64,000 bases of DNA from Eledone cirrhosa (Eukaryota). Where the stretch lies: positions 78,864,001 through 78,928,000 of the forward strand of contig OZ024745.1 of NCBI GenBank assembly GCA_964016885.1, in the 5' to 3' direction. Below, piece after piece: positions 765 to 62,819 of this stretch; within the stretch, counting starts at the first letter, position 1; every line of letters begins with the position of its first letter. Below the pieces are notes generated by a model. It was given only the letters and a program-made list of their open reading frames with translations, had not been told where the DNA came from and did not search any database. The position numbers and the translations under genes were made by a program.

Positions 765-892
765 CTCCAGAAAAAATAAACTAGCAAATTCATGATTGAA
801 TTCCAAAGTAGAGGCCTGCAGACATTTTTTGGCATCACTTAACCATCCAATGTATTGATTATTACCGTATGAAAGCAAACTGCTTGGTAACA
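765..892 (-). CDS. DDX58: RLR exon: Hel2i ([43 protein letters not shown])
   Basis: Phase 1-0; acceptor ttttttatttaaag, donor gtaagt. GxxQYxxW resembles RLR GTQxYEQW. Confidence 0.8.
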
Positions 893-30800: not shown

Positions 30801-33800
30801 AATTAAGAGGTTATAGTGTTTCTGGATAGATTTTCAAACTGAGTCTTTCTTTTAAATTCATGAACTGTAGGTTGACTTGAATGACCAGTCTTCTGGGTTT
30901 TTCTACATTAATGCAGGTGTCCCTTAGTGTCCTGGAGCCTGTACTGTGCTTAATCTTCATCAATGACTTTCCGGATTACATATTTTCTCAGCTTGGTATC
31001 TATGCTGATGACACAGCATAGATACCAAGGTTAACGCCGAGGTTAGCTTTGCCTTTCATCCTTACGGGGTCGATAAAATAAAGTACCAGTAATACACTGG
31101 GATAATTGCTGGCCTTGTGCCAAAAGTAGAAACAATTATTTAATCTTGTTTGATAAGTTTGATAAAGTTGAATAGGCAGAGAAGGATTTCAAATGCCACT
31201 TCTAAAAGCTTTCATGGACGATACTACAGTCCTTTCCATAAAGAAAGATGAGACACAAAATACAGAAACAGTTGCTAAGGTAGCTGCATCTTCTAGAATG
31301 AGGTTCAAACCAAAGAAATCCCCAAATCTCTCTCTGTGGATGGGGCAAGTAGCAGGAACAGTTGTGTTCATTGTAGCCAACCAAACCATTCCAACAGTAA
31401 CAGAGAAACTAGCCAAAATCCTTGTGGAGGTGGGATGATGACACTTTGAAAGATACAAAAAGGTTTCACTAATGTTGCACTTTACTGTTGCCAAGCCAAG
31501 CTGAAGCTACATCTCAAGCCCATCATTGAGGAGTACAAAGTTGGAAAAGCAAGGCTCATGAGCATGCCAACATGGAAAGGAGAAGTAAAATGATGATGAT
31601 GGTGGTGGTTTCAAATTTACTTCCACACCAACATCAAATATCACCGAACTAAAAGCAAACATTTAAAGCTTAATCAGTACCTCAACTTGTGAGAATGTTT
31701 CAACAATAGGAATGAAGATAATTCCATTATCAGAAATAAATCCAATTTCACTCTGTATAGAGGAAGAGATACCTATATTGATACCTATATTGATACAATG
31801 TCTTAATTTACCATTAGTACATATAAACACAAGCAAAACCTTCTAAAGAAAAAAACCTACACACATTGAAAAGCAATTCAATTATTCTAAAAGAAGCTGA
31901 CATTGTCATTTCAGATAAAGACTTTTACAAAAATAAAATACTCCAACTAATGGATAAAATTTATTGGGATGAAATTTATTACAAGGATGAAACAAGAAAT
32001 CTGGACAAAACAACTTGAAACAAAATAAAATCAAAGATTCATAAAAGCTCGAAATACAGAATGCTATTAATGAACAAATTAACCAATACATAAAAGTACT
32101 GAAACCAGCTAATGACAATTTTTTCCAGCTCTAATCCTACCTATCACATTTTCAGTGCATCTTCCACCACTGTTAATTTAATTGCCTAAGTAATAAAAGC
32201 TGTTGACAAGTTCTAAGGAGCCTCTCTGGCAGCTGAAGGAACCTACTTCACATGAGTTCTTAGAGCTTACTTCTCTTGTGCATCTTCCACATACCAAGTC
32301 TATCTTTTCTGTTAATCTGCCTGCAATCCAACTACATCTCTTGTGTGCACCTTATAGAATTTCTGCCCACCCTTTTCTTGAACAAGGCCATTTCCCAGAT
32401 GGCATCACCCTCCTGTCCTCTTTCCTATTTATTAGCACTTTTGTCTTTGCTAAATTTAGTTTTAAGCTTTTCAATTCTAGGTTCTTCTTCCATGTTTGAA
32501 ATTTTGTCTCTTACTCTCCTACGGATTTAGCTATTGGAACTAGGTCATCAGAATATAAGAGCTCCCAGAGAGTGCCAGTTGTAAACTCCTCAGTGATAAA
32601 CAGGAGTGGACTGATGACTGAGTTCTGGTGGATGCCCACCTGCACTTTAAATTCATTACTGTACTCGCTTCCAACCATTACCTTGCTGGTTGCACAGCCC
32701 TTACAAGCCATTCATCTACACATAGCTTCCTAAGTGTCCACCAGAGTGTGGTATCCTGTTAACACCTTCTCCATATCTACAAACATTAGATACAGAAGCT
32801 TACTCTTAGCTAAATACCTCTCCTGTAGTTGTCTCCCTATAAAGAGTGCATCAGTCGTACCCCTACTGAGCATAAATCCAAACTGCATCTCATCTAACTT
32901 GATTATGTCCCTAATTGGTTGTGCTATAACACTTTCAGCAATATTCGTGATCTGGTCCATCAACTTGATACTGCTGTAGTTACTTCTCTCTAATACATCT
33001 CCCGTGTCCTTGTAGCAATTTACAATGATACTGCTGCACCAATCATTAATTATGAAGCCTTCTTGTACTACTTGTTTAAATATGCATCTGACTAGCACAT
33101 ATCCTACCATGCCAGATGATTTTTGCATCTCGGATTCTATACCAAATGGTTCAGCTGCCTTCCCTACCTTCATGTCCTTAATTGCTTTAATAGTAGGAGA
33201 GCCCATATAAAAGAGAGAAAGTAAAAACAAAAAAAAATCACAAGAGTAAAAGTAAGTAAAGAGTGTGTGTGTGTGTAAAAGGTAAACAGAAATAACAAAA
33301 ATAACAAAACAAATGGCACAGTACAGGGAAGAAGATAGAGTTAGAAATAGAAGATAAATAGAAAGTAAAGAATGGGGAAAATGAGAAAAAAAAATGTAGA
33401 GAAAAAAACACGTTTATCAGTTGGTGTTATTTTTTAAGAAATTTTCATAGGGATTAAAATTTCAATCTCTGAAAGATTGATTAGTTTGGAGTTGAAAAAT
33501 GTCAAAATTGTCTGAATAATCTTTATTCTATGAAAATTCATTTAAATATTGCTAAATTTAGTAAATGTAGTTTTTTTATTTTTACCATTATCAGAAGCAG
33601 AATCGGTTTCCAAATTGTTGGAGAAATTGCTGTCACCTTTCCCATTTGATATAAAATCAGGGTCAATTTTATTAACTATATCAGCCTGATTGTTTTCTAT
33701 GAGTATTTTAAAGAAACTTTTATACCACATATCTTTCTTTAGTGGAACTCTTTCCAAGAGACATTCTGCAGCTAGAAGATGTGATCTTTCATTCAAAGAC

Positions 33801-36800
33801 TCAATTTCTTTTTTGTCGTTCTGATTAATAAGTTTTGCTCTAGTGAGAGGTTCCAAAATGTCGTTAACCATTATATCTTTTTTAAGATCAATCTGTGTTG
33901 CCAGTAAATTTTTATAATGTCTATTATTTTTTTCATTTTTTGCTTCTTGTGCCAGCTTCAAACAAATTTGTTCATAACCTGAAAATAGAAAGGGAATCAT
34001 ACTTTAGTGAAATAGTCAATGAGATCTTTAAACCAATATTGTGCTTTCAAATTCTATATCAAAGGCATTACATGAATTTTTTTTTTTTTTTCTCGTAGCT
34101 GCTGCACTTTATTCCTTTTATCAATGTTATAGATAAAAGATCATATGTAGAAATTCTTATTTATTTCTTTACATTTTTAATTCTATCCTGTTATTTTTCG
34201 AACTTGTACTTTTTGGCAAGTGACTCAATCTGAGTGGGCGTTCACCAGAACTCAGTCATCAGTCCACACCTGTTTATCACTGAGGAGTTTACAACTGGTA
34301 CTCTCTGGGGGTTCTTATATGCTGATGACCTAGTCCCGACATTTTAATCAATTAATAACAATAACATAACTGTTATGTTCAATTTTTGTTCATTTCTTGC
34401 AGTGTCAACATTTTCACTGCAACTCTACGAACTGGTCAGCAACACAATTCCTTTGTATCTGTTACAAATCATTTATTGAGAAACTTTTATAAGCAGTGAT
34501 GGGGGAGAGGGGCTTTACTTTTCTGTTCACTTTTTGCTTTTTTTTTCTGCTAAACTTTTGACATGGGCTGCAGTTGTTGAGACTTGCCTTCCTCCAATGG
34601 GTGTTTTCATGAAGGGTCAATCAAGTTTAAGTTCAATTCCTATGTTACCTCTCTATATCTCTCTTGTATATTTTACTATCACTACTAGCAGAAAAACCGC
34701 CATACGGGCGGTTTTCTGCTAGCGTATGTAGTGTGCATATTGGTATTATATGCAAATATATATACATATATGGAAAAAAAGGAAATTTCAGTTAGTACGG
34801 CTGATACTTAAATATAAGTATGTATATGTACATACATATATGTATACAGTAGTAAGTATATACATACATACATGCACACATATATATATATATGTACGTA
34901 TGGGTTTACCGAACATTTATTATAATGCTCGGTTTGTTTGTAAACAAACAGCCCGAATTAAGCCGTAACAGTGTTCGGCAACCATCGTTGTCCTTTTGTT
35001 CAACAAAGGAACGATGAACTAGTTTCTAGCTTATTAGCTGTCATCAGCACCATGTACCTTCCTGTCAGTCGATTGAACGTTTGAAAGTATATACTTTCCT
35101 TATGCATATTAACGGCTAATTTGCATATCGAGTGAGTTAGTTGGCCAGGCGTACCGAAAATGATAAATGAAAAAAAATGAAATTTCATTTCTCACTCCAA
35201 GAGTGAGAAATGAATTTCCACTAACTCACTCGATATGCAAATTAGGCTGCTCAGCCGTTAATATGCATAAGGAAAGTATATACTTTCAAACGTTCAATCA
35301 ACTGACATAAATGTACATGGTGCTGATGACAGCTAGTAAGCTAGAAACTAGTTCATCGTTCCTTTATCACGGTTGAACAAAAGGACAACAATGGTTGCCG
35401 AACACTGTTACGGCTTAATTCGGGCTGTTTGTTTACAAACAAACCGAACATTATAATAAATGTTCGGTAAACCCATACGTACATATACATATATGTGTGC
35501 ATATATGTATGTATATACATACTACTGTACGTCTGTATACATATATGTATGTATGTATACATACTTATATATACATAAAAATATAAATTAGCGAGAATCG
35601 TATTTCGGCTTTGGAATTAGCGAAAAACAACTTCCGAGATGTGTGGCAAGCGCTCAATAATTCTGATGAACCAGAGCTACAACATACGTTAAAGGCCAAA
35701 CACACTGAGACGATGGTTAAACCGTCATCCGCACAACCATAGAAACGACCAAGTAATTCGGGTCAAACAAATAAAAAAATATGTGATTGAAAAATTTACC
35801 CGGACCCCTGGATGGTTGGTAAAATCCAGCATTTGGGTTTCTGCAACTCCTAAATCAAGTATTGTCCGCTTAGACAAATAATGTTAGGCTTCTGGTAAGA
35901 TAATTGAACAAGGAAGTCACTTTCTCAACAGGTTTTAGTTCAAGTGCCAGGAAATATATATATATGTAAATTGAAAAGTAAATTGACAATATCTTCTTCT
36001 TCACCCACTTATTTCTGAGAGGGTCGTGAGGGCAGAGTCCTTCTCAAACACTCCTTCCATCGAGTCTGTCAGTAGCATGGGTCTCTTGCTGGTTGGTTTT
36101 GCCAGTAAAATCTGTCCAGCAATTATTTACTGAGACATTCTAACCACATGCTCATAATATCGAAGTTGTGATCTCTCAATTCGGAGAAGTAGCGACTCTA
36201 CCAGGAGTGACTCTCTGGTCTGAGCTGTGCACTTTATCGAGTAACATTACTCCAAAGACCCTTCAAAAGAATCCCATTTCTGCCACTTTTATTTGCAATT
36301 GTATTCTTTTAGTCATTACTCAAGATTCATGATCCTCAGTAAAAGTTGGCAGAAATAACAGGAAGACAGCGAGTTTGGCTTTTACACCTAAACCCCCCCC
36401 CCCCTCATCTGATTGCTGAATGCTGAGGCTGGCACATTACTGCATCAGCTTTTGCAATTCTTGCACTTAATTCAGCCTCCTGCATTCCATCACTCATGAA
36501 CACGGCCCCAAGATACTTGAATTTCTCTAACTGCTTCAGTAGAACTCCATTCACATTTATATAAATTTGAGGGACTTCTGTCCACCCGTCCATCATGCAA
36601 TGTGTATGTGTGTTTGTGTGAATGTATGTGTGTGTAAAAGGAAGGAAAGGGATACATACATATACATGTCTAACTTAAAAACAGTGACACAACGTGTCTC
36701 TAATTTAAGAACGCCGACAAACTCACGCACGCACACATACAAAAACAGTGTCTTATTACCACTTAAGAGCTTTGGCCCGGGCAAACATCCCCTCAATTTT

Positions 36801-39800
36801 GGAACCATCTGGGTTGTCCTGAGTTGATGGGAAAAGACTTGATGGTCTTACTCTGTGCTCCTGGTCAAGAGGCAGGTACCTTATCTGGGACGTCACAGTT
36901 AGTGACTCTTTTGCTTCTTCCCACATTCTGGATGCAGCGAGAGCTACAGCATCCGCAGCTGAACGGAACAAAATTCTAAAATACCGTGTTCTGTCAACTA
37001 ACTACATTATCCAGCCTGTGGCATTCAAGACATTTGGGGAAGTCGGGCTACTGACAGCGAGATTCTTATCTTCACTGGTGTCTCGCCAAATAGAGGTAAC
37101 TGGTGATGCTCATGAGGGCTCTTGGTTGTTCCAGCACCTCAGTCTCGCCATCACCCAAGGTAACACTGCGAGTGTGCTGGCATGCCTCAAAAATTATTAG
37201 AGAGGTTTCCTAGTGCTTCTCGGTATATTGTTATCTTTTGCTCTGGTAGCAGCTCGTTTTCCACTCTTTCGTCTGCATTTTGTTCTATGTGGTCTAAGAT
37301 GTGTGTATTACGTACTTGTGTATTTTTTCTCTTTCTTTTTTCCTTTGTATATATTATATTGAATTGGCAGTATTGGTAGAGGGTCGGACGCCATGCTTTC
37401 CAGCATAGTTACATCCCTTTACAGTCTGAGTTCAAATCCTGTCGAGATTAACTTTGCCTTTCATCCTTACGGGGTCGATAAAATAAAGTACCAGTAATGC
37501 ACTGGGATAATTGCTGGCCTTGTGCCAAAAGTAGAAACAATTATTAAAAAGGTGGTGGATTAACAGTATCGGTAGAGGCTTGGATACCATGCTTTGCAGC
37601 ATAGAGTTACGGCCCTTTATGATCTGAGTTCAAATCCCACCGAGGTTAACTTTGCCTTTTATCCTTACAGGGTCAATAAAATAAAGTACCAGTAATACAC
37701 TGGGATAATTGTTGGCCTTGTGCCAAAAGTAGAAACAATTATATTTGTTAGTGTTTTCGTTCTGTAACCATTATATTAAATGAGTTTTAAAAAAAAGAGT
37801 TAATAAATAAAGAGTTAATAAATAAATAAAACATTATACTTGTTTTACCTTCCCATTTCCAATTCACTGAACGCTATCATGACTGTATGTGTTTGTTTGT
37901 GTAAATGTATGTGTGAATGTATGTATGCTTGTGTGAATGTATGTGTATTTGTGTGAATGTCTGTGAGCGTGTATTCTTATAAGATTGTGTTTGCACGATT
38001 ATAGTTATATCCTCATAATAGTTATATACTCATACATATAGATGTATGTATGTGCACACTTATATGCGTGAGCATGTAGAAAATGATAATCTCTCTATCT
38101 ATATATATATATGGTAGTTGAAGTGGTGGTGGTGGTGACGATATACCGGAAGTGTAGAAATGTGAATGAAACTTTGAAAAGAAGTCAATTTTAAATTATT
38201 TATGTTTACAAAATTTAGTTTCGAAATTTAGGACATAAATTATGTAATATTCATTCATTATTTATTCAAAGTAGGACGGTGGATTGGCAGTATCGGTAGA
38301 GGGTCGGACGCCATGCTTTCCAGCATAGTTACGTCCCTTTACGATCTGAGTTCAAATCCCGCCGAGGTTGACTTTGCCTTTCATCCTTACGGGGTTGATA
38401 AAATAAAGTACCAGTAATGCACTGGGTAATTGCTGGCCTTGTGCCTAAAGTAGAAACAATTATTTATTCAAAGTAATCCAACTTATTTTACTAACGGGAT
38501 TAAAAGAACTGTACTACTAAATGAGGAGAATAAGTGGGAAAAAGATAGTCTGCCCCAAATCAATCCAATAAAGGGACTAGCAGTGCAAATTGAAGGTAGT
38601 ATAATAAGTAAGGCAATCAAATATATGAAGATAGGCAAAGCAGCTGGGCCTTCGGAGATAGTTGCTGAAATGCTGAAAGCATCTGGATCAGTGGGACATA
38701 CTATGGTCACCCGGATAATAAACCAAGTCATACAGAATAGGGTCATACCAAATGACTGGCGGAGCAGCATCATCTTTAACTGCTACAAGGGTAAAGGAGA
38801 TGCCCTAGATAGGGGAAATTACAGAGGCATTAAATTAATTGACCAGATCATGAAGGTCACAGAAAGAGTTATAGCGCAACTAATCAGAGAGCGAATTGAT
38901 CTAGATGAAATGCAGTTTGGGTTTGTGTCAGTACCACAGACACTCTTTTCCTTGTACGACAACTACAGAAGAAGTACCTAGCTAAAAGTAAACCCCTATA
39001 CTTAGCTTTTGTTGACTTGGAGAAAGCCTTTGACAGAGTCCCTTGCTCCATTATCTGGTGGGCTCTTAGAAAACAAGGTCTTGATGAATGACTTGTGAGA
39101 GCTATACAAGCCATGTATAACGAAACAGTCAGCAAGGTTAGAATTAACAACGAATATAATGAAGAATTTAGCGTAAAAGTTGGTGTTCATCAGGGCTCTG
39201 TCCTTAGCCCCCTACTATTTATTATTGCCCTTCAGGCTATAACAGGAGTTCAAGACCGGCTGCCCATGGGAACTTCTATATATGCAGATGATCTAACGCT
39301 CATAGCCGAATCAATGGCTGAACTAGAGAAGAAATTCCAAACATAGAAGCATGACCTAGAACCAAAAGGCCTTAAAATTAACTTGTCTAAGACTAAAGTT
39401 CAAGTATGTAGGAAGGAAAATAGGGCACTGGTCCCATCTGGGAAATGGCCATGTTCAGTGTGTAGGAAAGGAATAGGCAGAAACTCCATTTTATGTCCCA
39501 AATGCAAAGTATGGGTGCATAAAAGATGTAGTGGGATCACAGGTAAGCTAACTAAGAATATAGATTTTATATGTGGCTGGTGCTCAGGTGCAATAAGTAG
39601 CAGCAAATGCCCACAGAATACTAGCTCATTCCATTGCCCAGATGGTTAAATAGTGGACACCTTCCGTTACCTGGGTGACAAAATAAGCAGTTGTGGAGGG
39701 TGCTCCGAAAGTACTGTAGCTAGAGTCAGAACGGGATGTAAAAAATTCAGAGAGCTTATACCACTATTGGCCGCTAAAGGTTTCTTTCTAAAAATGAAAG

Positions 39801-42800
39801 GCAGCTGTATGATGCCTGCATACGAACAGCGATGTTACATGACAGTGAGACATGGGCATTGTGTGCAGAGGATCTGCACAGACTGGAGATGAACGAAGCT
39901 TGCATGCTCCGTTGGATGTGTAATAGTAATATACATGAACGGCAAAGCATAAATGAACTAAGTGAGAAATTAGGAATAAGAGGGATCAGATGCTGTTTAC
40001 TCGAGAGAAGACTATGTTGGTATGGTCACGTGATGCGCATGAAAGACGACAGCTGTATAAAAACATGCAAGGCGATCAAAATAGACGGTAGCTACAGAGT
40101 AGGCAGACCCAGAAAAACCTGGGACGACTTGATTAATTCCAACCTCACACACTTACACCTTTCCAAGAAAATGTCACTGGACCGAGATCTTTGGCGCTAC
40201 GCAGTAATACAGAAGACCCGCCTTGCCTAAGTACAAAGCGAAACCTACAGTCAGTAGGCACCTCTTAACCAAAATACACCCCCGTCCCACTACCCCTACC
40301 CCCACCGCCATCTACACCACCCCTTTCGATGTAAAGCTATGTTGGAACCACAACATCCAGTCCTAAATAAATGAGGTCATGTAGGTGTCACGAAAAAAAA
40401 ACACAGTCCACGCTGTAATGTGGTCGTGTAGGTAACACAGTAAAAACCTCCCAGTCCACACTGTAAACGTGGTTGGTGTTAGGAAGGGCATCCAGCCGTA
40501 GAAAACTCGCCAGACAGTCCTGAGCAAAACAACCAATCTTGCCTCAAGTGGGACAATTCCCGTCCAAACCTATGCTAGCGTGGAAGATGGACGTTAAACG
40601 ATGATGATGATGATGATGATGATGAACACAATTAAATGTCTTATCCACAGACACAATGAAATGTTCACAGTGTTACCTCCAGTTAGTCAATATGACTTAC
40701 TGAAACATCTTAAATTCAAAATGCATATCCAGCACTGAATTGAAATACTTAACTCTAAGTTGATCCAGTTAACTTAAATGTAAATTAGATTAAATTGGCA
40801 CTATTGAGTAGGAAGGACTGTAAACTAATGAACATTTCTATAGTACACATTACACGAACCTAAAGTCTTCAGTGGTGTTCCTGTAACCCAATGAATTCTG
40901 GGACTCGTTAGTCAGCTATCTTTCATGATCAATTGATTCTTTTTTTCAAATACCACTTTGGAAGAAGAATCAGGATGGAGAGAGAGGTGCTGTACCCCAG
41001 CAAGTTTTATGAAAGGTGGGTGGAAGTGGCGAGAATGGCCCAAGTGAATGGGCCTTCTCTCTATATCAGCCTGTAGGTTGAGGAAAAGCAGGAGAGGAAA
41101 GGACTACAAAGTCTTCGTACTCTTGGAGATGTGGGTTGCACATTTTTTCGGGGGTATGTGTTACCCATATAAACTGTCTCCCCCTATTGGGGAAAATCGA
41201 CTAACTTTTTAAATTGCAATAACATTTTACACGTTTTTTATTGTATGTAAACTTCCCCCTTTGTATTTGTCCCCTTCTTTTGTGCCCCTGTGGCTAATAA
41301 AGAAACATATCTTTCATGATCAATTATTGTATAGTAATTTCTATGCCTTATATCACTAAGCCACATTTTCCCTATTGACATCAACCTATAGAAATGCAAA
41401 GTGAACATTAATCAGAACAGTCCTGGAGGAGCCACTAATGAAATGAATACTGCACTAGCTTCTCAGATTAAAATGTAAAAAACAAAAAAGAAAATTACTT
41501 TACCAGCATCTGAAAGAACTTGGTACAAGGATTGATTCTTTCCTACATAATCGCTCTTTTCAAATAAGTCCATAATTTTTTCTATATTATTTCTATTTTC
41601 AGTAAATCCAATATGGTTTTTAGGCAACTCTGCAATAAAATAAAATTTAAAAATTAGTATTAACAATGATAATAAAACTCTACAAAAATATGCAATATAG
41701 GGCAAAATAAGTAGGTTAACTCAAGCCTTCAGAGTGAAATTGGGTAGACAGAAACTGTTTGGCTGCAGCTGGCTTCTCATCACAACTGGAGCCAGCAAGC
41801 GCTCCGATAGAGTTACCCTCTTCCCATTCGAAAGAGGTAAATCCCTCATCTGGGATGCCACATATTGTGATACATTCTCTGCCTCCAACTTAATCGGTTC
41901 GGCCACAAACCCGGATACTTGTTGCCATGGGTATAGCTGGCTATTGTCAATGGAAATGTCTTTGCAGTTTTGTCTGCGGGGTACAGCCCAAACACCTCCC
42001 CATACTAGGCCCAGAGCCCATCAACCTCTCCCCTTCTCCCCTCCCTTTCTTCTGTGGCCCAAGACTCCTTGCTTTTTCCCTCTTTTTCATATCTACATAA
42101 TTATCATTTCTTTTAAGCCAACTTTGTGAGTTTAATTTGAATAATATTATTGGGTTCACTGACCCAGTAATTCAAAGATCCAGGCCTTATTACACATTTT
42201 GTCACACTAAATCTCCCCATGAATTATACCAGAGGATTAACTAACTCTAAAGCAGACCCTTCTGCTTAACATAAAGAATGAACATCTTTGACAACATGAC
42301 CACTTACATCAACAATGTAAACACTCATATGACCAACCACATCGCCAATCAAAGATGCCCAACATTTTTAAACACCCTCACCCCCATTCCATTTCATTAC
42401 TTAAGGTTTAACAATGACTGGCATCATCAGTCCCCTTACCAATAAAAACAAACTTTATAAACTTTTCAGATAATTGTGTATTGAGCACTTTATATTTTTT
42501 CATTTGCATATATTGCAAGACTTATGCATGTTTATTATACATAAACATATTATATATGCCTTCATATGCACCCCTATTATAAATCAGGTTAAGTTAATGT
42601 TACTACTAATTAATCCTAGCCAATCAAGCTTGCATTATATGCAAATGAGCATCCCCAGCTGATGTTTCATATGCAAAAAGATATATAAGCTATAGCTTAT
42701 TCTTGTCTCAGTACCAAGTGAGTAAGTATCACCTGTCTGGCATTCTCACACAGATATTGAGATAGCTGTGACATGATCACAGCTTAAAATATTCATTGTG

Positions 42801-45800: not shown

Positions 45801-48800
45801 GAAAGAACAAGCCATGAAGACAAACTGACCCAAGTTTGATAAATATATCTTTAAAAATAAAACTACTGTGTTATTTTTTCCTAGATATCGTCCGCACCCT
45901 GTATATATATATGTATATGCATATATGTGTGTGTGTGTGTGTGTGTTAATAATAACAGTATTACTATTATTGGGTATAAACTTTCATGGTTTCAGTCCTT
46001 GGCTTGCAGCCATGCTGGAGCACTGCCTTAATTTATTTTCTTTCAGTTTTGTTGTAGTTTTATGGTTGGAAATTGGTCTGTAATTGAGTTTGTAGCAGCT
46101 GATCTTCCTTGGATGTATCCTTGAATAATTGGCTGGTCTGGAATCAACCAGGGCTTTTTTTATGACTTTTATATTTCTGATTTCCTTAGGTAGGCAGTTG
46201 AACACTTGATGCCCTCTAAATATCAGATTGATGCAGTAGAATGTTTTTACTTGCAATTTCAATGTTGCTGCATTTGGAAGCTAGTAGTTCATGCATTAAA
46301 ATCCATTTTAATGTTATGTTTGGAAATGGCTTTCTAGGATCTTCCATACATTTATAACAGTATATTACTCTCTTCGTCATTCATGAGTGTAGAGACCCAG
46401 AGCTTTCAAATGATCCCAGTAATTAAGGCCTTTGACTGAAGTTATTTTACTAGTGAAGACTTTCTGGAACCTTTCAATTTCTTCTATGAGACCGATGTGT
46501 TTGGAGACAAAAACTGTAACCAGTAATCTATTCTACTTTAAACTAAGGTTTTCCATCAAGTCAGCATGAGTACTGATTATCTTGTTACAAAGGTTCATAG
46601 GACCAATTCTATAAGGTGTCTGCTTCTTTAAACTGCATATGACCTCTCTTATGCCTAGTTTCTCTCTCAGTTCATTGATGATTTGTTGTTCAGGTACACT
46701 CATATTACATATTCATGCTTGCCTCATTTCTTTCCAATCTTTGTAGGTCCTCTGCACACAGAGCCCAAGTCCCATTTCCATGCAGCATTGCCATTCGCAT
46801 ACAAGTATCATATAATCTGCCTTTCATTTTAAGGAGAAAACCTTTTGTAACTAGCAGTGGTAGTAGCTCCCAGAACTTTTTCCATTCCTTTCTCACTCTG
46901 GCTACTGTACTTTCAGAACAATCACCTCCAATGATAATTTGGTCACCCAGATAACAGAAGCTGTCAACTACTTCTAGAGAGCCTTCTGAGCATTTGATAG
47001 AGCTTGCTTCATGTGGGCTCTTGTTGCTTACTGCTCCTGTGCACATACCACACACAAAGACTACATTATTTACTAGCCAGCCTGAGATCCCTCTACATCT
47101 CTTGTGTACTCATAGTTTGCATTTGAAACATAGAATAGAATTTTTACCCACTCATTTCCTGCATATTGAGCAAAGCTATTTCCCTGAAGGGATCAGGGTC
47201 TTCTTTACTGTCTTTGCCAAGTTAATTTTAAGACCTTTTGATTCCAAATTTTGATAGTGTCTGGAATTCCTTCTCAGATTTGGCTATAATGACTAGATCA
47301 TTGGTATATAGGAATTCCCATAAGCAACCATTTTTAACTTTCTGTGTTATAGCCTGGAGGATAATAATAAACAGAAAAGAGCTGAGAACAGATCTCTAGT
47401 GGACCCCCACTGGCACATTAAATTCCTCATTATACTCATTTTTAATTCTAACCTTGCTGACTGCTCCTCCGTTCATGGCTTGTGGTGTCCTCGCAAACCA
47501 CTCATCTACCCCCAGTTTTCAAATACATTCATAAGCTTCAAATGGCCATGATATTTGGAACCTTCAAAATTTGTAAAACATTCTTACGATTCAAAGGATG
47601 GATGCTTACACAAGAGACAAAGATAATTTCCATTCTTTACAATCTTGCCATCGAAAAGGTGGCTAGTAAAAAATACACTAAAAATTAAGAGAGAACATAC
47701 ATACACACACATGCATGCACACACATACATGCATATTTTTTATTATGGCTAATAGAAGACATTAGCATAAAATATTTTAGTAAACTTACGCAAATCTATT
47801 GCTAGTTGGTTCCAAATATCTCGTGGATGGACAGATTCAATTATGTCTCCAATGCAATGTTTTATCATTTCTTCAGAGTAACGTTGGCTTTTACCCTCCT
47901 CTTCAGGTATATAGGCTGCAGAAGGAATCTCTGAAGGAGGAAACTCTGTAGAAGTAGAAGGTATTTTTATTACTTTACATTTATTTTTGTCCATGATAGT
48001 GTGAGAGAAGGTTTATTAGGGCAATTTCATTTTCTAAAATGTCTATTTTCCATGATAGCATGGATTAGACAGGATATCATGTATTGGTCAGATGTCCATA
48101 TGTCCATATGTCCTGTCCATATGTCCTGTTTTGGGTTTAGTTTCTATAGCTGCATGCCCTTCTTAATGGCAACCATTTTACTGTGACTCTGGCACTATCG
48201 CCTTACAGGGTCAACTGAGATAATTTTACCACAACTCTGGCATTACCACTTTACAGGGTAAACTGAGATCATTTTACCACAACTCTGGCACTACCACCTT
48301 ACAACATGGACCAGGATCATTTTACTGTAATTGTTGTATTACCCCCCTTACAACACGGACCAGGACCACTTTACCACAACTCTGACACTACAACCTTACA
48401 GGGTGAACTGGGATCATTTTACTGTGACCCGGTGTATGATAAGTATTGACAAGTAATTATAAGTTATTGGAGGGTACATGGCTTAGTGGTTAACCTGATC
48501 ATCTCTCAGTCATAAGTTTATGAGTTTGATTCCTTGTGGTGCCTTGTCTCCTTGAGCAAGACACTATATTTCGCATTGCTCCAATCTTCTCATCTGGCAA
48601 AAGTGAATTGTACTTATAGTTCACAAACCCTGCCTTGTCACACACTGTGTCATGGTGTATTCCCTTGAAAACTACATAGAATATGTATGTGTATATATAT
48701 ATATTTATCATCGTCATCATTTAACGTCCATTTTCCACACTAGAATGGGTAGGATAGGATGTCTCTTTGGGAGAGATCAGGTCGGAGGACAATGTTTCGC

Positions 48801-51800
48801 TCACACAGGGCTGATTTTGGCTTGGTTTCTACAGCTAGATGCCTTTCCTAACGCCATATATATATATATATATATATATATGCATACCTATACATATATA
48901 TATATATATATGTATATATCATCCTCATCATCACCATTTTATGTCCATTCTTCCATGCTAGCATGGGTTAGATGAGTTGTCCTGTTGTGAGCAATGCTAG
49001 ATCAGGTGACTATGTCTTGCTCATACAGAACTGATTTTGGCTTGGTTTGAACAACTGGATGCCCTTCCTAATGCCAACCTCATTTACAGTGAGTACTGGG
49101 TGTATTTTTGTCATGACGTCTATACAACCACTTTACAGTGTGGACTGGGTGCAAACAAACTGAGAGAGAAATTGGACATAAGAGGAATGAGATGCAGTGT
49201 GCAGGAGAGCAGATTGCATTGGTATGGACATGTGATGCATATGAAGGATGACAGTGGTACAAAAATGTGCAGAGCACTGAAAGTTGATGGAAACCATGGA
49301 GTGGGAAGACCCAGGAAGACTTGAGATGAAGTGATAAAAGCTGACCTTTCTCAATTGTACCTCTCAAAGGTGATGACACAGACCGAGATCTCTGGCATTA
49401 TGCAGTAATACAGAAGACCCACCTTACCAGGAGTACAGGCTGAAGCATACACCACCTTCACCTCCACCCTACTCTTCCATACACCTCCCTTAAGCACAGG
49501 CTGAAGCATACATCTAGTGCACCCCACCCCACTCTCTTCCACTTACCTTCTTATGATTCTGCTAAATCTAGGATACCTTAGACTGAGTAGACAAGAATTG
49601 TTTTCTCTTGCCTTTCTCTAGCTAAGATGGAGAAATTGAATTTTCCATTTTGAACTACTGAAACACTTGCAAATTGTAGAGTACTCCTTATTCTGAAAAC
49701 AAGATAGGATGGACATGGCTGGCTAGAATATCTTTGATTATATTTCTACGCAATTAGGACTGACCTGGTGCTAAATATTGATTTCCAATTTAGACACAAA
49801 GCCAGCAAATTTTGGGGAAGAGCAAAGTTGATTAAATAAGACTTCGCTGATACTTTATTTTATTAACCCTGGAAAGATGAAAAGCAAAGTTGACCTCAGT
49901 AGGAATTGAATACAGAATGTGAAAAGCCAGAACAAACTCTGCAATGGCATTTTATCCATTCTGCCAGTCCACTACCCTGGTGCTAAATATCAGCAGCAGT
50001 AGCATCCTCATTATTGTGATTTCATTTAACATCAATTTTCCTAAGCTAACATGACTTGCAACTTTTCTCAGAAGTTTAATGTTCCTAGGTTTGCCCTGAT
50101 TATTTCTTCCCATGTCTTTATTTGTTTACTTGTGCTTGTGATACCTTCCATAAATTACACAAAGCACCTTCTCACCATCTTGCACTTTCCATTCACATTA
50201 TATTTTTAAACCAGCACAATCAGTTTAACTATGTGAACTGTTGATACCCTTTTTATACCTAAAGCAAAAAACAATAAACAAAAGCATCATAAAAGATTTA
50301 AGTGAAAAAAATAAAAATTTCTCTTACTAGCTTCCATATCTTTCAATAAATCTTCTCTGTCCATGAGTTTAAAGCATTTAGTGAGGTGTGTTATCAAAGA
50401 TGACAAGGGACAAGGAAAATATGCTAATAATAAAATAGCAGCTGAATAGATTCCTTCATTTTCATTACAACATTTTATTTCTTCCAGCTGATCTTCTGTT
50501 ATAACTTGTATAGATTTCAAATTGGTTGCAAATGCAGTAACATTTAATCGATCTTCAGTAAATATACTGCTGAACATAAGAAACATTTTACAGTAGGAAT
50601 TAACATTTTCTGTTTGACTATCTATAAATTCATAGAGCTTGCATATGGAATTAAATTCTGAAATATAGAAAAGATTAAACAATCAAATAAACAGGTGAAA
50701 ATTTGAAGAAATAAGAAGAAAATTAAATTGACAATTTATTATTTGGGATTATTTTAATCAAACAAAAAGTGAGAGAAAGAAGTTCCTGAGTTCAAATCCA
50801 CTGCAAGCATTTCTTTATATTTTCTTATGATTCTCCTAATTGTTGAGAATAGACAGTAGAGCTTCTGAGAGTATCATTAGCAATAGACTGGCATCTTATC
50901 CAAAGAGAAACAGATTTATAACTCATCCTTTTCATGAGATGAAACTAAAGCTAAGTACCAATCACAAAGGGAACATTATTTATTCTAATCAGACCCATAG
51001 AAACTCCAAATTCCATAAATGTTCTTACTTTTATTTTGGTACATAAATGTATATATTCTCATAACAATTTTTTCATTATGTCAAAGATCTTTTTGGATAA
51101 TGAGCCTGATAATAGATCAAGGATATTGAAACAATAGGATTTAGCTAACATATAAAGTTAGTAACAATATGATCAATACTGGTCTTTTCTAGCTTTGCTA
51201 CAAGAGGATCCGTGAGTCCAGTGTGCTGTTCAACATGCAGTAGCTGTAAACAGCACCCTTCAACCTAATGTGTCAATTTAATATTGTTGAAAACGCTTTC
51301 GTGGTCGGTGAATAATACTGAAACCACCTTTATATATAAGACAATAACAAAAGAACTCTTGCATAGTCACTTTATTCTGTACACAGGTTCATTGTTTATC
51401 AACATGCTACAGATCATTCAAGCTCACCATTGAGAAATAAATATTGTAAATCACACTATAATTAAGGCAATAGTTCAAAAGTTTATCTCCAATTCCCAAA
51501 GCGTTCCAATGAGGACAGGATCTGACTTTTTCTACCATGTTGTATGGTTCAACTACAACTTATTCTAATGCCATCCTCTCAGATGTTGACCTCTTCTTAG
51601 AACATTTCTCAAATTAAGCAATTATTTTTAATTCATATTTTCTCTTTATACCCAATTCTTTTCTAGAGTTCTTTGATATTCTGCCTGCTGTTCTTTGTTC
51701 AGATTACTTTTTCACACTTCTCTCTCTTTCAATGTTATCACATATAATCAGCTTCCTATTTACTGTCTATGTTTCTCTTTGCATCAGTTAATTATCTCTT

Positions 51801-54800: not shown

Positions 54801-57800
54801 TTTGCTGGATTCCCCTCCTGTCACCAATCGCTTTACAACATGGACGAGCATTTTATCTTGGTACCATCATTAGAGAGGTTGTCTCACAAGACTTAAGTGT
54901 CCTCCCTACACTGTATCAATTCTTATTCAGTTCCTCCTTTCCTAGAAAAGTTGCATTTGCTAGAGTTTACAATGTCCATGCCTACCCTATACATATACAT
55001 AAATGGATCTTTGTCTTCATACAACATTATCATCATCATCATCATCGTCGTTTTAGCGTCTGCTTTTCCCCGTTTGCATGGGTTGGACAGGTCTTTTTCA
55101 GCATCTCTCCACTCACTGCATTTCTTTGTCATCTCCTTTGTGAGTCTCAGTGATTTGAAGTCAGCTCTCACCACTTCTGTCTAGGTCTTTCCCAGTTAAC
55201 CTCCACTGCAGCTTCCATCCACTGGCATTTGCTGGCACCTCTTCACCCATCAATCATCACTCATACGCATCACAAGTCCGTACCAACGCAATCTTCTCTC
55301 TAAACTTCTTCCATCCTATCCTTATTCTAGTTATTATGTTCTCAGAACACCCTCCTCCACTGATGATTAAGTCACCTTGATAGCAGAAGCTATCAACCAC
55401 TTCTATGGATCCTCTCAGAATAGGTTTATATCACTGCAGTTCGTCTCTTTGATTTCTCCTGTACATCTACATACAAAGTCTTCCTTTCCTGTTAGTCTAC
55501 CTGTTAACCCACTACATTTCTTGTGTACCCAGGATTTACATTGTATAAGAAAAAAATCATCTGCATATAAAAGGTCCCATAGACAGCCACTTATAAACTC
55601 CTCTGTTATGGCCTGGAGAACTATGATGAACAGCAGTGGGCTAAGAACCAAACCTTGATGAACTCCTTCCTGTACCTTGAATTCCTCTTTCTTTTGGGCA
55701 TCTGTAGTGTTAAGTGACCAGTGTCATTTCTAACACATTTTTCCCCAACATCTTGATTGACACTAACACACTGCCTTGCAATGCGAAACACTTCCCATGC
55801 ATAGAAAAAAAATTGATTAATTAATTAAATAATTAATCAACAGAACTTTCACTTTTTGCCCACAAAAATACTTTCATTTGTCCTTCTTCCCCTTTCAGAA
55901 AAACACTTTTACATTTTACTAAAGATCTGACTTTTTTTTTGCAAAGGAAAACATTTTCACATTTTGATTCCCTTTGAAGCATAACATACTAATACATACC
56001 ATGACAAGTAAAATATTATAGATTTTATAACCTGAATAAAATCAGACCATCAAACAGAACTACATAGCCTAAGAGAATAATAATTATACAAAAGAAATAT
56101 GAAATTCACAGCTTTATTTCATTAAAACACATTTTTGGTCATGTGAGCAGTGATACTGGTTGTCATCTATATATATAAAACTGAGGATGTCTGTCTATGT
56201 GAGTTTGAATCCCTAAAACTCGAGAACCACCCAACCGACTGTTTTCAAACTTTATATATGTAATACTTATGTTTCAGGGAGTGTTCTGAGCAAAAATAAA
56301 ATTCAAATTTCCAATGCCCTAGGGACCACATTAGGCGATTTAGCGATCTCTTTCTATAATTCTTAGTCTTTCTTTTTTTAGATAGATACATACATATAAC
56401 GTCGCGCCCTTATAATATCTGTCTGTATGTCTGGCTGTCTGCATTACGTCACTTCCCTGAGGATGTCTGTCTGTGTGTGTGTGTGTGTCTGTGAGTTTGA
56501 ATCCCTAAAACTCGAGAAGTACCCAACCGATTTTTTTCAAACTTTACATGTGTATTACTTATGTTTCAGGGAGTATTATGCACATAAAAACATTTTGATC
56601 TCCTAGGGCCCGCATTAGGTGAAAACCTGCGTTTTTTAAGCTTTTTAGGGTTTTTTTGAGGCGTTACATCAGACCGATTTCCTTGAAATTGAAACTATGT
56701 ATTAGTCAGTCTCTTCTTCATACCGTGAGCAAAGAAAATCCAACTTTTTTATGGCCTAGGGCCCACATTAGGGGAAAAACTTCATTTTTTCAGCTTTTTA
56801 GGGCTTTTTGGAGGTGTTACATCTAGCCGATTGTCCTGAAATTTCAAAGCATATTATGCACATAAAAAAAATTCATTTTCTTGATCCCCTAGGGCCCGAT
56901 TAGGAGAAAACCTGCATTTTTCCTGCTTCGTTGAGGAAAATCTTAAAGATTATCCAGCCATCAGAGTATTCGGTTTATTTTCTTTACATACTGTCCAGGC
57001 ATGCAGTATTTCCATGATTATGTCTGTTGGCGGCCTGCGTTCCAAAATACCTTATCCCGTGCAACGCCGGGTACCACTTCTAGTATGAAATAAAAGCATC
57101 ATAAAACTAGTGACTCAACTCCAAAACACCATGATTAAGGGAACCCAAAATGGTAAGTAACAAACAAATTATAATAAATGTGACTTAATTTGTTTTTAAC
57201 AGACTTGTATTCAATCCAGTGCAAGATTTATTTAAAGCTACTAAAACTTCAATTGAACACTAGTGCTTAAGAATCACTCAGAGCATCTGCAGATATTTTG
57301 TATAGTTTTTTTTTTTTTAGTAAATGCCTCTCTGTACATAGCTTTGAAACTAGTGAAAATATGATAACTAGTTGATAGCAATTCTCATAGCCCTTTGGGT
57401 CATACAACAAACATAAGAATTAATAATAGTTTCTAATTTTGGCACAAGGCTGCCGATTTTAAGGGAAGGGACAGTCGATTACATCAACCCTAGTACATGA
57501 CTGGTACTTTATTTTATTGAACCTGGAAGGATGAAAGGCAAAGTTGACTTCAGCAGATTTGAACTCAGAATGTAAAGGGCCATGATTAAATGCTGCAATG
57601 CATTTTTCTTGACACTTTAACAATTCTATCAATTCACCACCCTCTTAAGAATTAATAAAAAATATATAGTTTTTTTGGAAGTTGTAAATTAAGTAGTAAT
57701 AATTGTTTCTACTTTTATTAAGTAGTAATAATAAAAACTGAACTGTTGACCTTTCACTGACTGAGAGTCTACCAACCAGTTAAAGTTCTCTTGATGAAAT

Positions 57801-57961
57801 AAACAAGTTTTAAAAGTTTCCATGATTACCTGCTTCCTTGAGTGCTTCATAGTACTTTCTCCATTTGTCTTCATCATTGTTCTTCATTAATACATCATAC
57901 AGCAGTTCAAACCCATCTTTTTGTGAGATTTTATGAGCTTTACAAATTTGACCAGCACTCG
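765..57961 (-). CDS. DDX58: RIG-I-like receptor (DExD/H helicase, DDX58/IFIH1 family) with an apparent 4-CARD N-terminus; partial spliced model of 11 exons: 57830-57961, 50328-50657, 47790-47945, 41504-41629, 33586-33978, 29231-29382, 26667-26842, 20795-20987, 16390-16552, 14391-14483, 765-892
   Basis: All exons have AG/GT boundaries and matching phases, and join into one stop-free frame. Motifs appear in RIG-I order: CARD-like segments, [68 protein letters not shown], then Hel2i-like sequence. The symbol indicates family; strict orthology is not established. Confidence 0.93.
1440..3368 (+). mobile_element. Degenerate Tx1/L1-type LINE, RT and 3' part
   Basis: KVLPKRL…[12 protein letters not shown]…[12 protein letters not shown] with frameshifts; YVDD-like motif near 2005; 3' end ccctggtggccattaaaagaaa. 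Confidence 0.8.
2744..2932. repeat. Perfect 88-bp inverted duplication with a 13-nt loop, followed by a ~31-bp tandem duplication
   Basis: 2744-2831 is the reverse complement of 2845-2932. cataaagaacagggtgaaggtagagaagg occurs twice immediately afterwards. Confidence 0.92.
4170..7845 (+). mobile_element. Tx1/L1-clade LINE: ORF1 with CCHC knuckle and ORF2 with APE endonuclease and RT; frameshifted and 3'-truncated
   Basis: [14 protein letters not shown]; [21 protein letters not shown]; [34 protein letters not shown]. Confidence 0.9.
7846..8245 (+). mobile_element. Second LINE ORF1-like fragment
   Basis: [19 protein letters not shown]…HCFVCGE parallels the ORF1 region at ~4450-4850. Confidence 0.6.
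8260..10812 (+). mobile_element. Degenerate R4/Dong-like LINE with restriction-like endonuclease and (TAA)n tail
   Basis: [44 protein letters not shown]…RHN, RPDIV, IIDIAYP; TAA repeats at ~10792-10812. Confidence 0.88.
10815..11407 (-). mobile_element. Non-autonomous Helitron-like element containing a ccccctctctctatatattataa minisatellite
   Basis: On the minus strand it starts A|TCTATATATTAA and ends …CCAGCTAG|T, with a short subterminal hairpin. Confidence 0.65.
11484..11846. repeat. ~95-bp inverted repeat with poly-G/poly-C inner ends and a ~165-bp spacer
   Basis: 11484-11577 is nearly the reverse complement of 11743-11846. Confidence 0.85.
11983..14250 (-). mobile_element. RTE-clade LINE (RT with internal PHD-like finger), 5'-truncated, (GAT)n tail
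   Basis: [33 protein letters not shown]…CPKC…HKRC…[19 protein letters not shown]. Confidence 0.93.
14391..14483 (-). CDS. DDX58: RLR exon: Hel1-Hel2i junction ([31 protein letters not shown])
   Basis: 93 bp, phase 1-1; acceptor cttgtag, donor gtaagt. F...I...M pattern typical of the start of Hel2i. Confidence 0.82.
14688..14985 (+). repeat. ~59-bp tandem repeat (~5 copies) built from the SINE 5' head
   Basis: The unit ggtaaggtggtggattggcagaatcggtagagtgtcagaatt… matches the SINE start ggtggattggcagtatcggtagag. Confidence 0.8.
15302..16040 (-). mobile_element. Internally deleted mariner-type element
   Basis: TIRs tatgaggtctgtcgaaaaattatctgac and gacagatactttttgatagacctcata; remnant [17 protein letters not shown] resembles ITGDETW. 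Confidence 0.8.
16390..16552 (-). CDS. DDX58: RLR exon: motif III region ([54 protein letters not shown])
   Basis: Translated by hand; acceptor tattttag, donor gtaagt; phase 0-1. Matches RIG-I VIGLTASVG…LCA.LD. Confidence 0.93.
16820..19240 (-). mobile_element. CRE-like non-LTR retrotransposon (RT plus RLE), degenerate
   Basis: [55 protein letters not shown]. Confidence 0.85.
20795..20987 (-). CDS. DDX58: RLR exon: motif Ib/Ic and DECH box ([10 protein letters not shown]…[19 protein letters not shown]…LPQ)
   Basis: Within ORF 20669..21001; acceptor tttacag, donor gtaagt; phase 2-0. Confidence 0.96.
21062..22310 (+). mobile_element. Degenerate mariner transposon interrupted by a solo LTR
   Basis: TIR-like ends tacaaggagcattcaaaaagtt and aactttgttaatgcccctcata; remnants QRTNIKF and [13 protein letters not shown]. 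Confidence 0.8.
21442..21871 (+). mobile_element. Solo LTR (~430 bp) with a 4-bp AATA target-site duplication
   Basis: Ends TGTAGCA…TGTTATA, AATA on both flanks, TATAAAA near 21569 and AATAAA near 21808. Confidence 0.65.
22658..24276 (+). mobile_element. RTE LINE copy with an internal deletion removing YADD and the PHD-like region
   Basis: Nearly identical to the 12-14 kb copy. It jumps from …QAMYK directly to KISSGGGC at ~23335 and has a (GAT)n tail. Confidence 0.92.
24938..25650. mobile_element. Foldback/MITE-like palindromic element, copy 1
   Basis: Arms of several hundred bp are reverse complements around a centre near 25325 (…gaaaaatgaaatgaaatttcgtttcatttttc…). Confidence 0.85.
25957..26443 (-). 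mobile_element. 3' end of the RTE family
   Basis: Reverse complement of ~23790-24276, with a (CAT)n tail on the plus strand. Confidence 0.88.
26667..26842 (-). CDS. DDX58: RLR exon: motif Ia ([16 protein letters not shown])
   Basis: Phase 0-2, donor gtaagg. A second in-frame AG lies 12 nt into the exon. Confidence 0.92.
27078..28260 (-). mobile_element. Three tRNA-derived SINE copies (~27078-27265, 27546-27725, 28072-28260)
   Basis: A-box tggcagtatcgg, B-box gagttcaaatcc and core ttgcctttcatccttacggggtcgataaaat. Confidence 0.88.
29231..29382 (-). CDS. DDX58: RLR exon: Q-motif and Walker A ([39 protein letters not shown])
   Basis: Translated by hand; acceptor ttttatag, donor gtgaaa; phase 1-0. 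Confidence 0.95.
30143..31140 (+). mobile_element. Two partial SINEs (30143-30283, 31033-31140) flanking an RTE fragment and a CR1/Jockey-like RT fragment (~30430-31020)
   Basis: SINE core sequence; [17 protein letters not shown]…DKQYGF; YADD at ~31000. Confidence 0.75.
31860..32120 (+). mobile_element. Possible Penelope-like RT remnant
   Basis: [24 protein letters not shown] resembles the PLE motif IIKPADKG..VVIMDK.DY..K. Confidence 0.4.
32140..33200 (-). mobile_element. Older RTE LINE fragment
   Basis: [37 protein letters not shown]. Confidence 0.85.
33586..33978 (-). CDS. DDX58: RLR exon: CARD4 plus linker (GYEQICLKL…[12 protein letters not shown]…[29 protein letters not shown]…)
   Basis: 393 bp, phase 1-1; acceptor ctattttcag, donor gtaaaa (an in-phase alternative donor would end the exon at 33637). 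Clear RIG-I CARD2-like pattern. Confidence 0.88.
34790..35570. mobile_element. Foldback/MITE-like palindromic element, copy 2
   Basis: Same family as 24938-25650; arms invert around …atttctcactccaagagtgagaaat… near 35197. Confidence 0.85.
36775..37200 (+). mobile_element. 3' RLE fragment of a CRE-like element
   Basis: [45 protein letters not shown]. Confidence 0.75.
37365..38465 (+). mobile_element. Three tRNA-derived SINE copies (37365-37545, 37553-37743, 38275-38465)
   Basis: Same SINE as at 27-28 kb, in the opposite orientation. Confidence 0.88.
38512..40624 (+). mobile_element. RTE LINE copy (RT with PHD-like finger), 5'-truncated, (GAT)n tail
   Basis: ORFs at 38583, 39095, 39383 and 39832 are nearly identical to the 12-14 kb copy. 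Confidence 0.93.
40935..41307 (+). mobile_element. 5'-truncated LINE 3' end with an 18-bp target-site duplication
   Basis: tatctttcatgatcaatt at 40917-40934 and 41308-41325; end ccctgtggctaataaagaaa resembles the 3' end at ~3345-3365. Confidence 0.75.
41504..41629 (-). CDS. DDX58: RLR exon: C-terminal half of CARD3 (…[30 protein letters not shown])
   Basis: 126 bp, phase 1-1; acceptor tttattgcag, donor gtaaag. Similar in size and ending to the 132-bp exon. Confidence 0.72.
42840..44705 (+). mobile_element. Degenerate, rearranged RTE fragments, including a 21-bp triplet at ~43520-43580
   Basis: [30 protein letters not shown] remnants. Confidence 0.8.
45034..45901 (+). mobile_element. Internally deleted Tc1/mariner element of DD37D (maT) type, inserted in (TA)n
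   Basis: Perfect TIRs cagggtgcggacgatatct and agatatcgtccgcaccctg. QQDSAPCH…[10 protein letters not shown](L)D gives a 37-residue spacing after correcting one frameshift. Confidence 0.88.
46620..47540 (-). mobile_element. Older RTE fragment
   Basis: VDSFCYLGD…[10 protein letters not shown]…MLHG. Confidence 0.85.
47790..47945 (-). CDS. DDX58: RLR exon: P/E-rich linker plus N-terminal part of CARD3 (…[24 protein letters not shown])
   Basis: 156 bp, phase 1-1; acceptor cttctacag, donor gtaagt. I..S..P..I resembles CARD helices 1-2. Confidence 0.75.
48170..48430. repeat. Degenerate ~50-bp tandem repeat (~5 copies)
   Basis: Recurring attttaccacaactctggcactacc…ttacagggt…gatc. Confidence 0.7.
50328..50657 (-). 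CDS. DDX58: RLR exon: linker plus CARD2 (EFNSICKL…[26 protein letters not shown]…)
   Basis: 330 bp, phase 1-1; acceptor tatatttcag, donor gtaaga. CARD helix pattern with EEI…AA.LL. Confidence 0.8.
52860..55800 (-). mobile_element. Cluster of decayed RTE fragments
   Basis: [18 protein letters not shown]…LLYADD, RRLRWYG and endonuclease-region remnants. Confidence 0.7.
56166..57083 (+). mobile_element. Non-autonomous Helitron
   Basis: Starts A|TCTATATATATAAAA; GC hairpin cccgtgcaacgccggg at ~57056-57071; ends CTAG|T; internal duplication of ~56181-56340 at ~56456-56620. Confidence 0.85.
57830..57961 (-). CDS. DDX58: RLR exon: C-terminal half of CARD1 ([43 protein letters not shown])
   Basis: 132 bp, phase 1-1; acceptor tttctttcaaag, donor gtaatc. 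Resembles human RIG-I exon 2 (…GWFRGFLDALDHAG). Confidence 0.75.
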
Positions 57962-62698: not shown

Positions 62699-62819
62699 TG
62701 GATATCACTTTCTTAATCATTTCAGTCTTCTCTGACAATGCAAATAAAAACAAATAATCATTAATCTTTCAGTTAAAGACCAAATTATAATATATTACTA
62801 TATAAATAATATATATTTA

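Follow-up and report, generated by a model that had tools for sequence, protein, structure and literature searches.

The 64,000-nucleotide stretch of the Eledone cirrhosa genome analysed here (the window) carries, on its minus strand, exons 2 to 12 of a gene for a RIG-I-like receptor (RLR). Profile comparison and fold modelling confirm that the N-terminus of this octopod receptor consists of four predicted death-fold domains rather than two, in the order CARD1-CARD2-CARD1-CARD2. The domains (D1 to D4) are encoded by two blocks of three exons, an outer block A (D1 and D2) and an inner block B (D3 and D4), which have matching phase-1 introns and lie within a single gene. The repeated exon pattern and the four-CARD N-terminus had both been put forward in an initial annotation of the window, and all four domains are recovered by the profiles. 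Such a layout would alter the way in which the sensor relays its alarm or keeps it in check.

Assignment of the four domains

The four domains were compared by hhalign with CARD1 and CARD2 profiles built from 13 two-CARD relatives (nine named molluscs and four proteins taken as molluscan by similarity, their two-CARD status being judged by eye). D1 matched CARD1 with a probability of 96.6%, D2 matched CARD2 with 94.3%, D3 matched CARD1 with 94.8% and D4 matched CARD2 with 99.2%. Against the profile of the other type the probabilities were 2, 4, 8 and 68%, respectively, and the 28 control comparisons, in which three helical pieces of the helicase and the four reversed domains were each set against four profiles, did not exceed 36%. 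Scoring with hidden Markov models (HMMs) gives the identical domain order. With vertebrate profiles, made from 22 MDA5 proteins, D4 is clear at 98%, while D1, D2 and D3 reach 26, 25 and 4%. The intron positions follow the same repeat: introns 1 and 4 both lie seven residues past the aligned helix-2 anchor, introns 2 and 5 share an alignment column, and introns 1 to 6 of the Eledone gene are in phase 1 throughout. A linker of some 10 to 19 residues separates the two blocks.

The domains differ in how much of the CARD signature they keep. D4 has 12-15 of 19-21 CARD2 hallmarks, and D2 has 6-7 of 21 and is without the W-x3-F motif. For the CARD1 hallmarks the counts are similarly low overall (5-7 of 12-17), with 5-6 of 17 in D1 and 6-7 of 16-17 in D3. 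D1 keeps the CARD1 tryptophan and helix 3; D3 has neither and shows a deletion relative to the molluscan CARD1.

The Pfam check proposed in the initial annotation holds for D4 alone, which is over the cut-off in the window exons (CARD_2 29.2 bits, CARD 25.5 bits); D2 scores 20.8 bits with CARD_2, under the cut-off, and none of the three small exons is matched. On the orthologues Pfam likewise finds one or two CARD stretches. As standard domain searches see so few of the CARDs, the four-CARD layout is easily missed and surveys would undercount CARDs. In a search of PDB sequences the top match of exon 6 is MDA5 CARD2 (E 0.003) and exon 3 has no matches, and a word-based protein search with exon 6 gave nothing among 303 candidates. 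Atlas matches, which serve as leads only, place residues 1-190 with CARD or nameless clusters at 0.84-0.86 and exon 6 at 0.88-0.91.

Predicted structures

Two fold models were made from orthologues. The first, of Octopus bimaculoides residues 1-392, used octopod alignment rows only, and two of its five models have a mean predicted local distance difference test score (pLDDT) of about 70. Six helices are predicted in D1 and in D2 (pLDDT about 90, with 82-95 for D2), five in D3 (51-62) and six in D4 (37-75). Among 48,161 chains the modelled D1 matches duck RIG-I with a Z score of 12.8 (root-mean-square deviation (rmsd) 2.3 over 91 residues), mouse RIG-I with 12.7 and MDA5 with 11.7, and D4 in this model matches CARDs, with a best Z of 8.9. 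The matches listed for D3 are DED, PYD and DD folds at Z 6.5-7.1. Those listed for D2 are PYD and DED folds at Z 6.4-7.5, a range that is common for helical bundles, in a list where one row per entry hides the second-best alignment to RIG-I.

The second model, of D3-D4 from Octopus vulgaris, used an alignment with 12 two-CARD relatives and reached a pLDDT of 93 and a predicted template modelling score of 0.87. Helix 3 of D3 is again a loop, leaving five helices, and D4 has six helices at pLDDT 96-98 and Z scores of 10-14 to many CARDs. D3 and D4 superpose as a whole tandem on the MDA5 2CARD (Z 20.2) and the RIG-I 2CARD (Z 19.2 and 18.9), with rmsd 2.3-2.7 over 177-179 residues. Four death-fold bundles, as the initial annotation expected, are thus present in the orthologue models, with five helices in D3 and a D3-D4 model that depends on its alignment. 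By profile (95%) and position D3 is a degenerate CARD1 derivative with five predicted helices.

Several aspects of the models weigh against the explanation proposed below. Block A in the first model aligned to RIG-I across D1 only, and the nearest folds listed for D2 are of the PYD and DED type. The alignment behind the second model held molluscan 2CARDs, so that the D3-D4 model leans towards that fold; from octopod rows alone its pLDDT is 37-75. Both models also represent O. bimaculoides and O. vulgaris, not Eledone cirrhosa.

Gene structure

Exons 2 to 6, the five exons upstream of the helicase on which the initial annotation was based, are all present as described, with AG/GT ends, lengths that are multiples of three and a common phase. 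The gene overruns both ends of the window, exon 1 lying beyond the right end and exons 13-16 beyond the left; these were located by tblastn of the O. bimaculoides protein against 100 kb on either side, followed by refinement of the splice sites. Joined from the genome by predicted splicing, the 16 exons and 15 GT-AG introns give a single open frame of 1,117 residues (Table 1), which replaces the 680-residue joined translation considered earlier. Over 35 residues, exon 1 shares 74% identity with the start (residues 1-35) of the O. bimaculoides protein (tblastn, E 1e-9). Its methionine is common to the orthologues, and an in-frame stop lies 16 codons 5' of it. Intron 1 measures 69.6 kb and includes an assembly gap of 200 N (G000:C5:78960346-78960545), which leaves the distance to exon 1 uncertain.

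The initial annotation had suggested that more CARD modules could lie outside the window. None does: with the start codon fixed in exon 1, a six-frame profile scan of 264 kb (6,047 open pieces) gave no CARD, helicase or tail match at E <0.5 outside the exons of this gene, and further modules upstream are ruled out within 36 kb beyond exon 1. Since these exons alone scored, the gene has just two blocks, with no helicase relic in between.

Table 1. Exons of the Eledone cirrhosa RLR gene. Positions refer to the window unless given on contig G000:C5, which marks exons outside it.
Exon	Length (nt)	Position	Strand	Encoded region
1	100 (coding)	G000:C5:78991662-78991563		Met1-33, first half of D1; ATG and GT donor
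2	132	57830..57961	-	second half of D1 (CARD1 type)
3	330	50328..50657	-	helix 6 of D1 and D2 (divergent CARD2 type)
4	156	47790..47945	-	linker of ~19 aa and first half of D3
5	126	41504..41629	-	second half of D3 (CARD1 type, helix 3 replaced by loop)
6	393	33586..33978	-	helix 6 of D3, D4 (canonical CARD2), acidic linker
7	152	29231..29382	-	helicase start, Walker A (PTGSGKT)
8	176	26667..26842	-	Hel1
9	193	20795..20987	-	Hel1 with DECH
10	163	16390..16552	-	Hel1 end, motif III region (TAL)
11	93	14391..14483	-	Hel2i start
12	128	765..892	-	Hel2i
13-16	130, 246, 168, 668	G000:C5:78859050-78858921, 78856349-78856104, 78834410-78834243, 78832439-78831772		Hel2, motif VI QKRGRAR, pincer, zinc-binding C-terminal domain

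Helicase and C-terminal domain

The remainder of the protein is that of an RLR. The superfamily 2 helicase motifs Walker A, DECH and motif VI are intact in the joined frame, and Pfam DEAD, ResIII and Helicase_C are matched on the orthologues. The Hel2i insertion (RIG-I_C, PF18119) scores 30.4 bits in isoform X2 of O. bimaculoides and was missed by Pfam in another orthologue; Hel2i in the window aligns at 48%. The last exon holds a zinc-binding C-terminal domain with two CxxC motifs (RIG-I_C-RD, PF11648, 80 bits, over the cut-off; C5:78831874-78832188), and among six candidates in the genome this gene is the one that RIG-I_C-RD matches. Motif III in helicases is usually TAS. Eledone has TAL in this region, at the start of exon 10 (window 16535-16552), where Octopus and Argonauta have TAV, and the departure from TAS may affect how ATP use is coupled to RNA movement. 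By its family the protein would be expected to sense double-stranded or 5'-triphosphate RNA and to hydrolyse ATP.

Orthologues in octopods

Database proteins from O. bimaculoides, O. vulgaris, Octopus sinensis and Argonauta hians, all of them gene models, hold both blocks and the helicase in one chain (XP_052821716.1, CAI9718248.1, XP_029658486.1 (O. sinensis) and GAB1607394.1 (Argonauta, without exon 1)), and these carry the 50328>47945 junction between the blocks. A search of 1.84 billion representative proteins with exon 3 gave four matches, which include O. bimaculoides (E 6e-23), Argonauta hians (E 1e-9) and an exon-sized piece; the fourth, a repeat protein unrelated to RLRs, was dropped. 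No squid, cuttlefish or Nautilus RLR is among the matches listed (120 of 174), which is not informative on the architecture in those animals. The exon lengths of the O. sinensis RLR (100, 132, 333, 129, 120, 393, 167, 173, 193, 163, 93, 128, 130, 246, 168 and 698 nt; PMC8998645 Fig. S1) parallel those of the Eledone gene. One RLR is given for each Octopus species (PMC8998645 Table S2), and two RIG-I genes, whose domains are not given, for the squid Euprymna (PMC7665748).

In the helicase tree the Eledone RLR groups with Octopus, with Argonauta outside (96/97), and the open frames are intact at 32-68% identity between Eledone and the other species. Of the four CARDs, D1 shows the highest conservation in four of five species pairs; between Eledone and Octopus it is 64-68% identical, compared with 57-61% for Hel1 and Hel2. 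RefSeq isoforms generally rest on RNA reads. Two annotated isoforms affect D1: isoform X2 of O. bimaculoides skips exon 2 (44 residues), which breaks the domain, and isoform X2 of O. sinensis starts within exon 3, so that the domain is lost.

Origin of the two blocks

The initial annotation explained the two blocks by duplication of a three-exon unit. The two blocks stand; the sequences do not establish self-copying as their origin. A tree built from 28 two-CARD blocks recovers one supported clade for octopod block A (100/100) and another for octopod block B (99/99), from which it follows that the doubling predates the split of Argonauta and Octopus. The tree neither joins nor separates them, a single A+B clade giving p=0.356 in the approximately unbiased (AU) test. 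Blocks A and B are 17-19% identical, and so no nearer to each other than to bivalve 2CARDs, with which identity reaches 21%; direct pairwise alignment of the exons is weak, with a best z of about 3 among ten pairs, and so are the profile matches between the blocks, at 57% for D1-D3 and 14% for D2-D4. Internal duplication and capture of the block of a neighbouring paralogue are both compatible with these sequence data.

A second four-CARD RLR is found in the mussel Mytilus edulis (XP_071167746.1, DHX58-like), which by HMM is CARD1-CARD2-CARD1-CARD2 with 8.9, 29.7, 41.7 and 78.6 bits. Its inner block is canonical (hallmarks 10 of 17 and 18 of 21), and isoform XP_071167748.1 skips the 45-residue exon for the second half of CARD1 in that block. 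In the helicase tree (25 rows selected by the analyst, LG+G4, including MDA5 and LGP2 and leaving out vertebrate RIG-I) it nests with the two-CARD RLRs of scallop and oyster (99/98). A single origin of the octopod and Mytilus genes was rejected as a clade (AU p=1.1e-5). With Mytilus on a branch separate from the octopods, it would seem likely that the four CARDs were gained independently in the two lineages.

Proposed mechanism and alternatives

Helix 3 forms one of the three assembly surfaces of the death fold. In RIG-I, CARD2 docks on Hel2i and CARD1 faces MAVS. The RIG-I 2CARD is held until RNA binds; four copies of it then assemble into the two-turn helix that seeds MAVS (PMC5076470, PMC11982451). 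Oyster CgRIG-I-1 binds poly(I:C), and oyster RLR CARDs bind a MAVS of the CARD-Death-transmembrane type (PMC5557890).

With the blocks unequal, D1 the best conserved and the short isoforms hitting D1, a stretched receptor is favoured in which D3-D4 would provide the restraint or the spacing and D1 the output. Such a division of labour, the inner block restraining the sensor and the outermost CARD engaging the adaptor, is given a probability of about 0.5. It draws on RIG-I and oyster RLR biology for RNA sensing, for autoinhibition through the CARD2 next to the helicase and for signalling through an adaptor. Binding of viral-type double-stranded RNA would fall to the helicase and tail. The inner block would keep the sensor inactive by docking on the helicase, and D1, at the tip, would once released engage a MAVS-like downstream adaptor by CARD-CARD contact. 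The degenerate D2 and D3 would then be an extended regulatory arm, not a second signalling head. A receptor made without exon 2, or from a start inside exon 3, would be unable to signal, in the manner of the RIG-I splice variant; exon 2 of vertebrate RIG-I, also skippable, encodes part of the first CARD, and RIG-I lacking it cannot signal in human or duck (PMC3900705).

Other results sit less well with these roles. By hallmark count D1 is no more canonical than D3, and its match to the vertebrate CARD1 profile is the 26% given above. D3 is conserved at 43-66% and is thus not mere filler. Abalone has been reported to be without MAVS (PMC11103948), and none was recognised in this genome among the 20 CARD matches examined of 26 listed, an approach by which split or divergent exons would be missed.

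The initial annotation had raised the possibility that two linked 2CARDs pre-assemble half of the signalling tetramer. This is weakened by the lack of helix 3 and tryptophan in D3, the lack of W-x3-F in D2 and the inequality of the blocks; the decoy or autoinhibitory module that it also offered fits better. A bolder and tentative proposal is that the doubled N-terminus of the sole apparent octopod RLR would be a new signalling geometry, of a kind built at least twice in molluscs. It could provide a taller or ubiquitin-independent seed, or a two-adaptor head working without a conventional MAVS, and be tuned by half-CARD exon skipping.

In a rival reading, the helical CARD seed would take in all four domains, and fewer receptors or less ubiquitin would then be needed; this avidity explanation is less likely than divided labour. 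Two molecules might make an eight-CARD lock-washer, as in the initial annotation, or four might stack into a four-turn seed. In RIG-I the seed is a helix whose repeat is one CARD, and the 2CARD layout keeps it to two turns (PMC5076470). The modelled inner block retains the tandem geometry, the short linker between the blocks would favour end-to-end stacking over side-by-side packing, and all four domains are retained in Eledone and three Octopus species, the Argonauta model lacking only exon 1. That a four-CARD RLR likely arose twice is also as expected if valency itself is selected. However, D3 is without helix 3 and D2 is stripped of most CARD2 hallmarks, and with blocks of such low identity a symmetric helix would require two matched sets of surfaces.

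It is unlikely that the signalling of two receptors has merged into the only octopod RLR, with block A coming from a second RLR paralogue (or from an early divergence) and addressing a different adaptor from block B. The fully supported separate clades of the blocks, not joined with support, are consistent with this, as are the PYD/DED-like appearance of D2 and D3 in the fold search and the expansion of soluble CARD-Death genes in this genome. The gene counts would agree too, with one RLR in each Octopus species and a single RIG-I_C-RD match here against two RIG-I genes in Euprymna. Yet a single A+B clade is not rejected, and no helicase relic remains between the blocks.

That the upstream three exons are a CARD-only gene or relic, and the four-domain protein an annotation artefact, is very improbable: an older O. 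bimaculoides annotation did treat the CARD part and the helicase as two proteins, but its CARD-only model runs across the junction of exons 3 and 4, with the division coming after D4, the join is annotated in four assemblies, exon 3 has a clean phase-1 donor with a clean exon 4 acceptor 2.4 kb further on, and the frames are intact across species.

Comparison with known receptors

With vertebrate RIG-I (DDX58) and MDA5 (IFIH1) the octopod protein has in common the CARD1-CARD2 tandem fold as modelled for the inner block, the fold of D1, the DECH helicase with Hel2i and the zinc-binding C-terminal domain; it differs in having two blocks, a D3 without helix 3 and a divergent D2. It groups with molluscan RLRs and not with MDA5 or LGP2, in a tree that holds no vertebrate RIG-I. 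Its helicase belongs in one clade with the V1-type molluscan RLRs (oyster CgRIG-I-1, scallop, clam and chiton; 99/98), and for both octopod blocks the CARD1 and CARD2 profiles of molluscs are a better match than those of vertebrates. In the 13 two-CARD relatives the two CARDs are followed by a long low-complexity linker, whereas in the octopod RLR four domains are followed by about 35 residues before the helicase. The Mytilus protein has the same domain order, and there the canonical block and the block with the skipped exon are both the inner one.

Lophotrochozoan RLRs with grafted N-termini follow the same known theme, N-terminal domains being acquired through added exons (Yao et al. 2022, PMC8998645). 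The supplement of that paper includes O. sinensis XP_029658486.1 and its six N-terminal exons, and its available text files the Octopus pair among the canonical V1/C types, with O. bimaculoides labelled V2. The N-termini named there are Death, CARD, CARD-CARD, IG, DED, SAM and CASc, four CARDs not being among them, and the available text of PMC8662601 names other odd RLRs but not a four-CARD one. No description of a four-CARD RLR was found in the literature searched for the architecture, a body that leaves most subscription journals outside and in which types L1-L6 and X1-X4 of PMC8998645 Fig. 1 might bear on novelty. The octopod four-CARD RLR is apparently unreported, within a family known for its varied N-termini.

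As RLR signalling is understood to proceed through four 2CARD units that form a two-turn seed, the number of CARDs sets the threshold. A conserved natural receptor with four domains, together with the independent mussel case, offers a test of the trade-off between valency, spacing and autoinhibition. Coleoid cephalopods edit their RNA very heavily, which makes the control of a double-stranded-RNA sensor in these animals a question of its own.

CARD genes elsewhere in the genome and intron content

The sole other CARD_2 match reported in the genome, at G000:C3:276577296-276577556, resembles the N-terminal CARD of DLG5 and not MAVS. At G000:C2:233.68-233.83 Mb at least six CARD matches are clustered, several of them single frames of about 220-240 residues with a CARD and a Death-like domain; two further matches in the cluster carry a stop. 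Three frames from four stretches of this cluster run to a stop codon without encoding a membrane anchor. These CARD-Death proteins are candidate soluble adaptors, and may be RAIDD-like or MAVS-like without the anchor. At G000:C17:40.54 Mb a single frame of 271 residues carries two CARDs with a short repeated linker between them and no other domain.

Within intron 1 a 32-bp unit is repeated in tandem, with 65 copies at 98% matches (window 60607-62699). Judged from translations, decayed pieces resembling the reverse transcriptase and endonuclease of long interspersed nuclear elements lie in the introns at window positions 3700-8300, 9000-10200, 12400-14300, 16800-18700 and 38450-40200.

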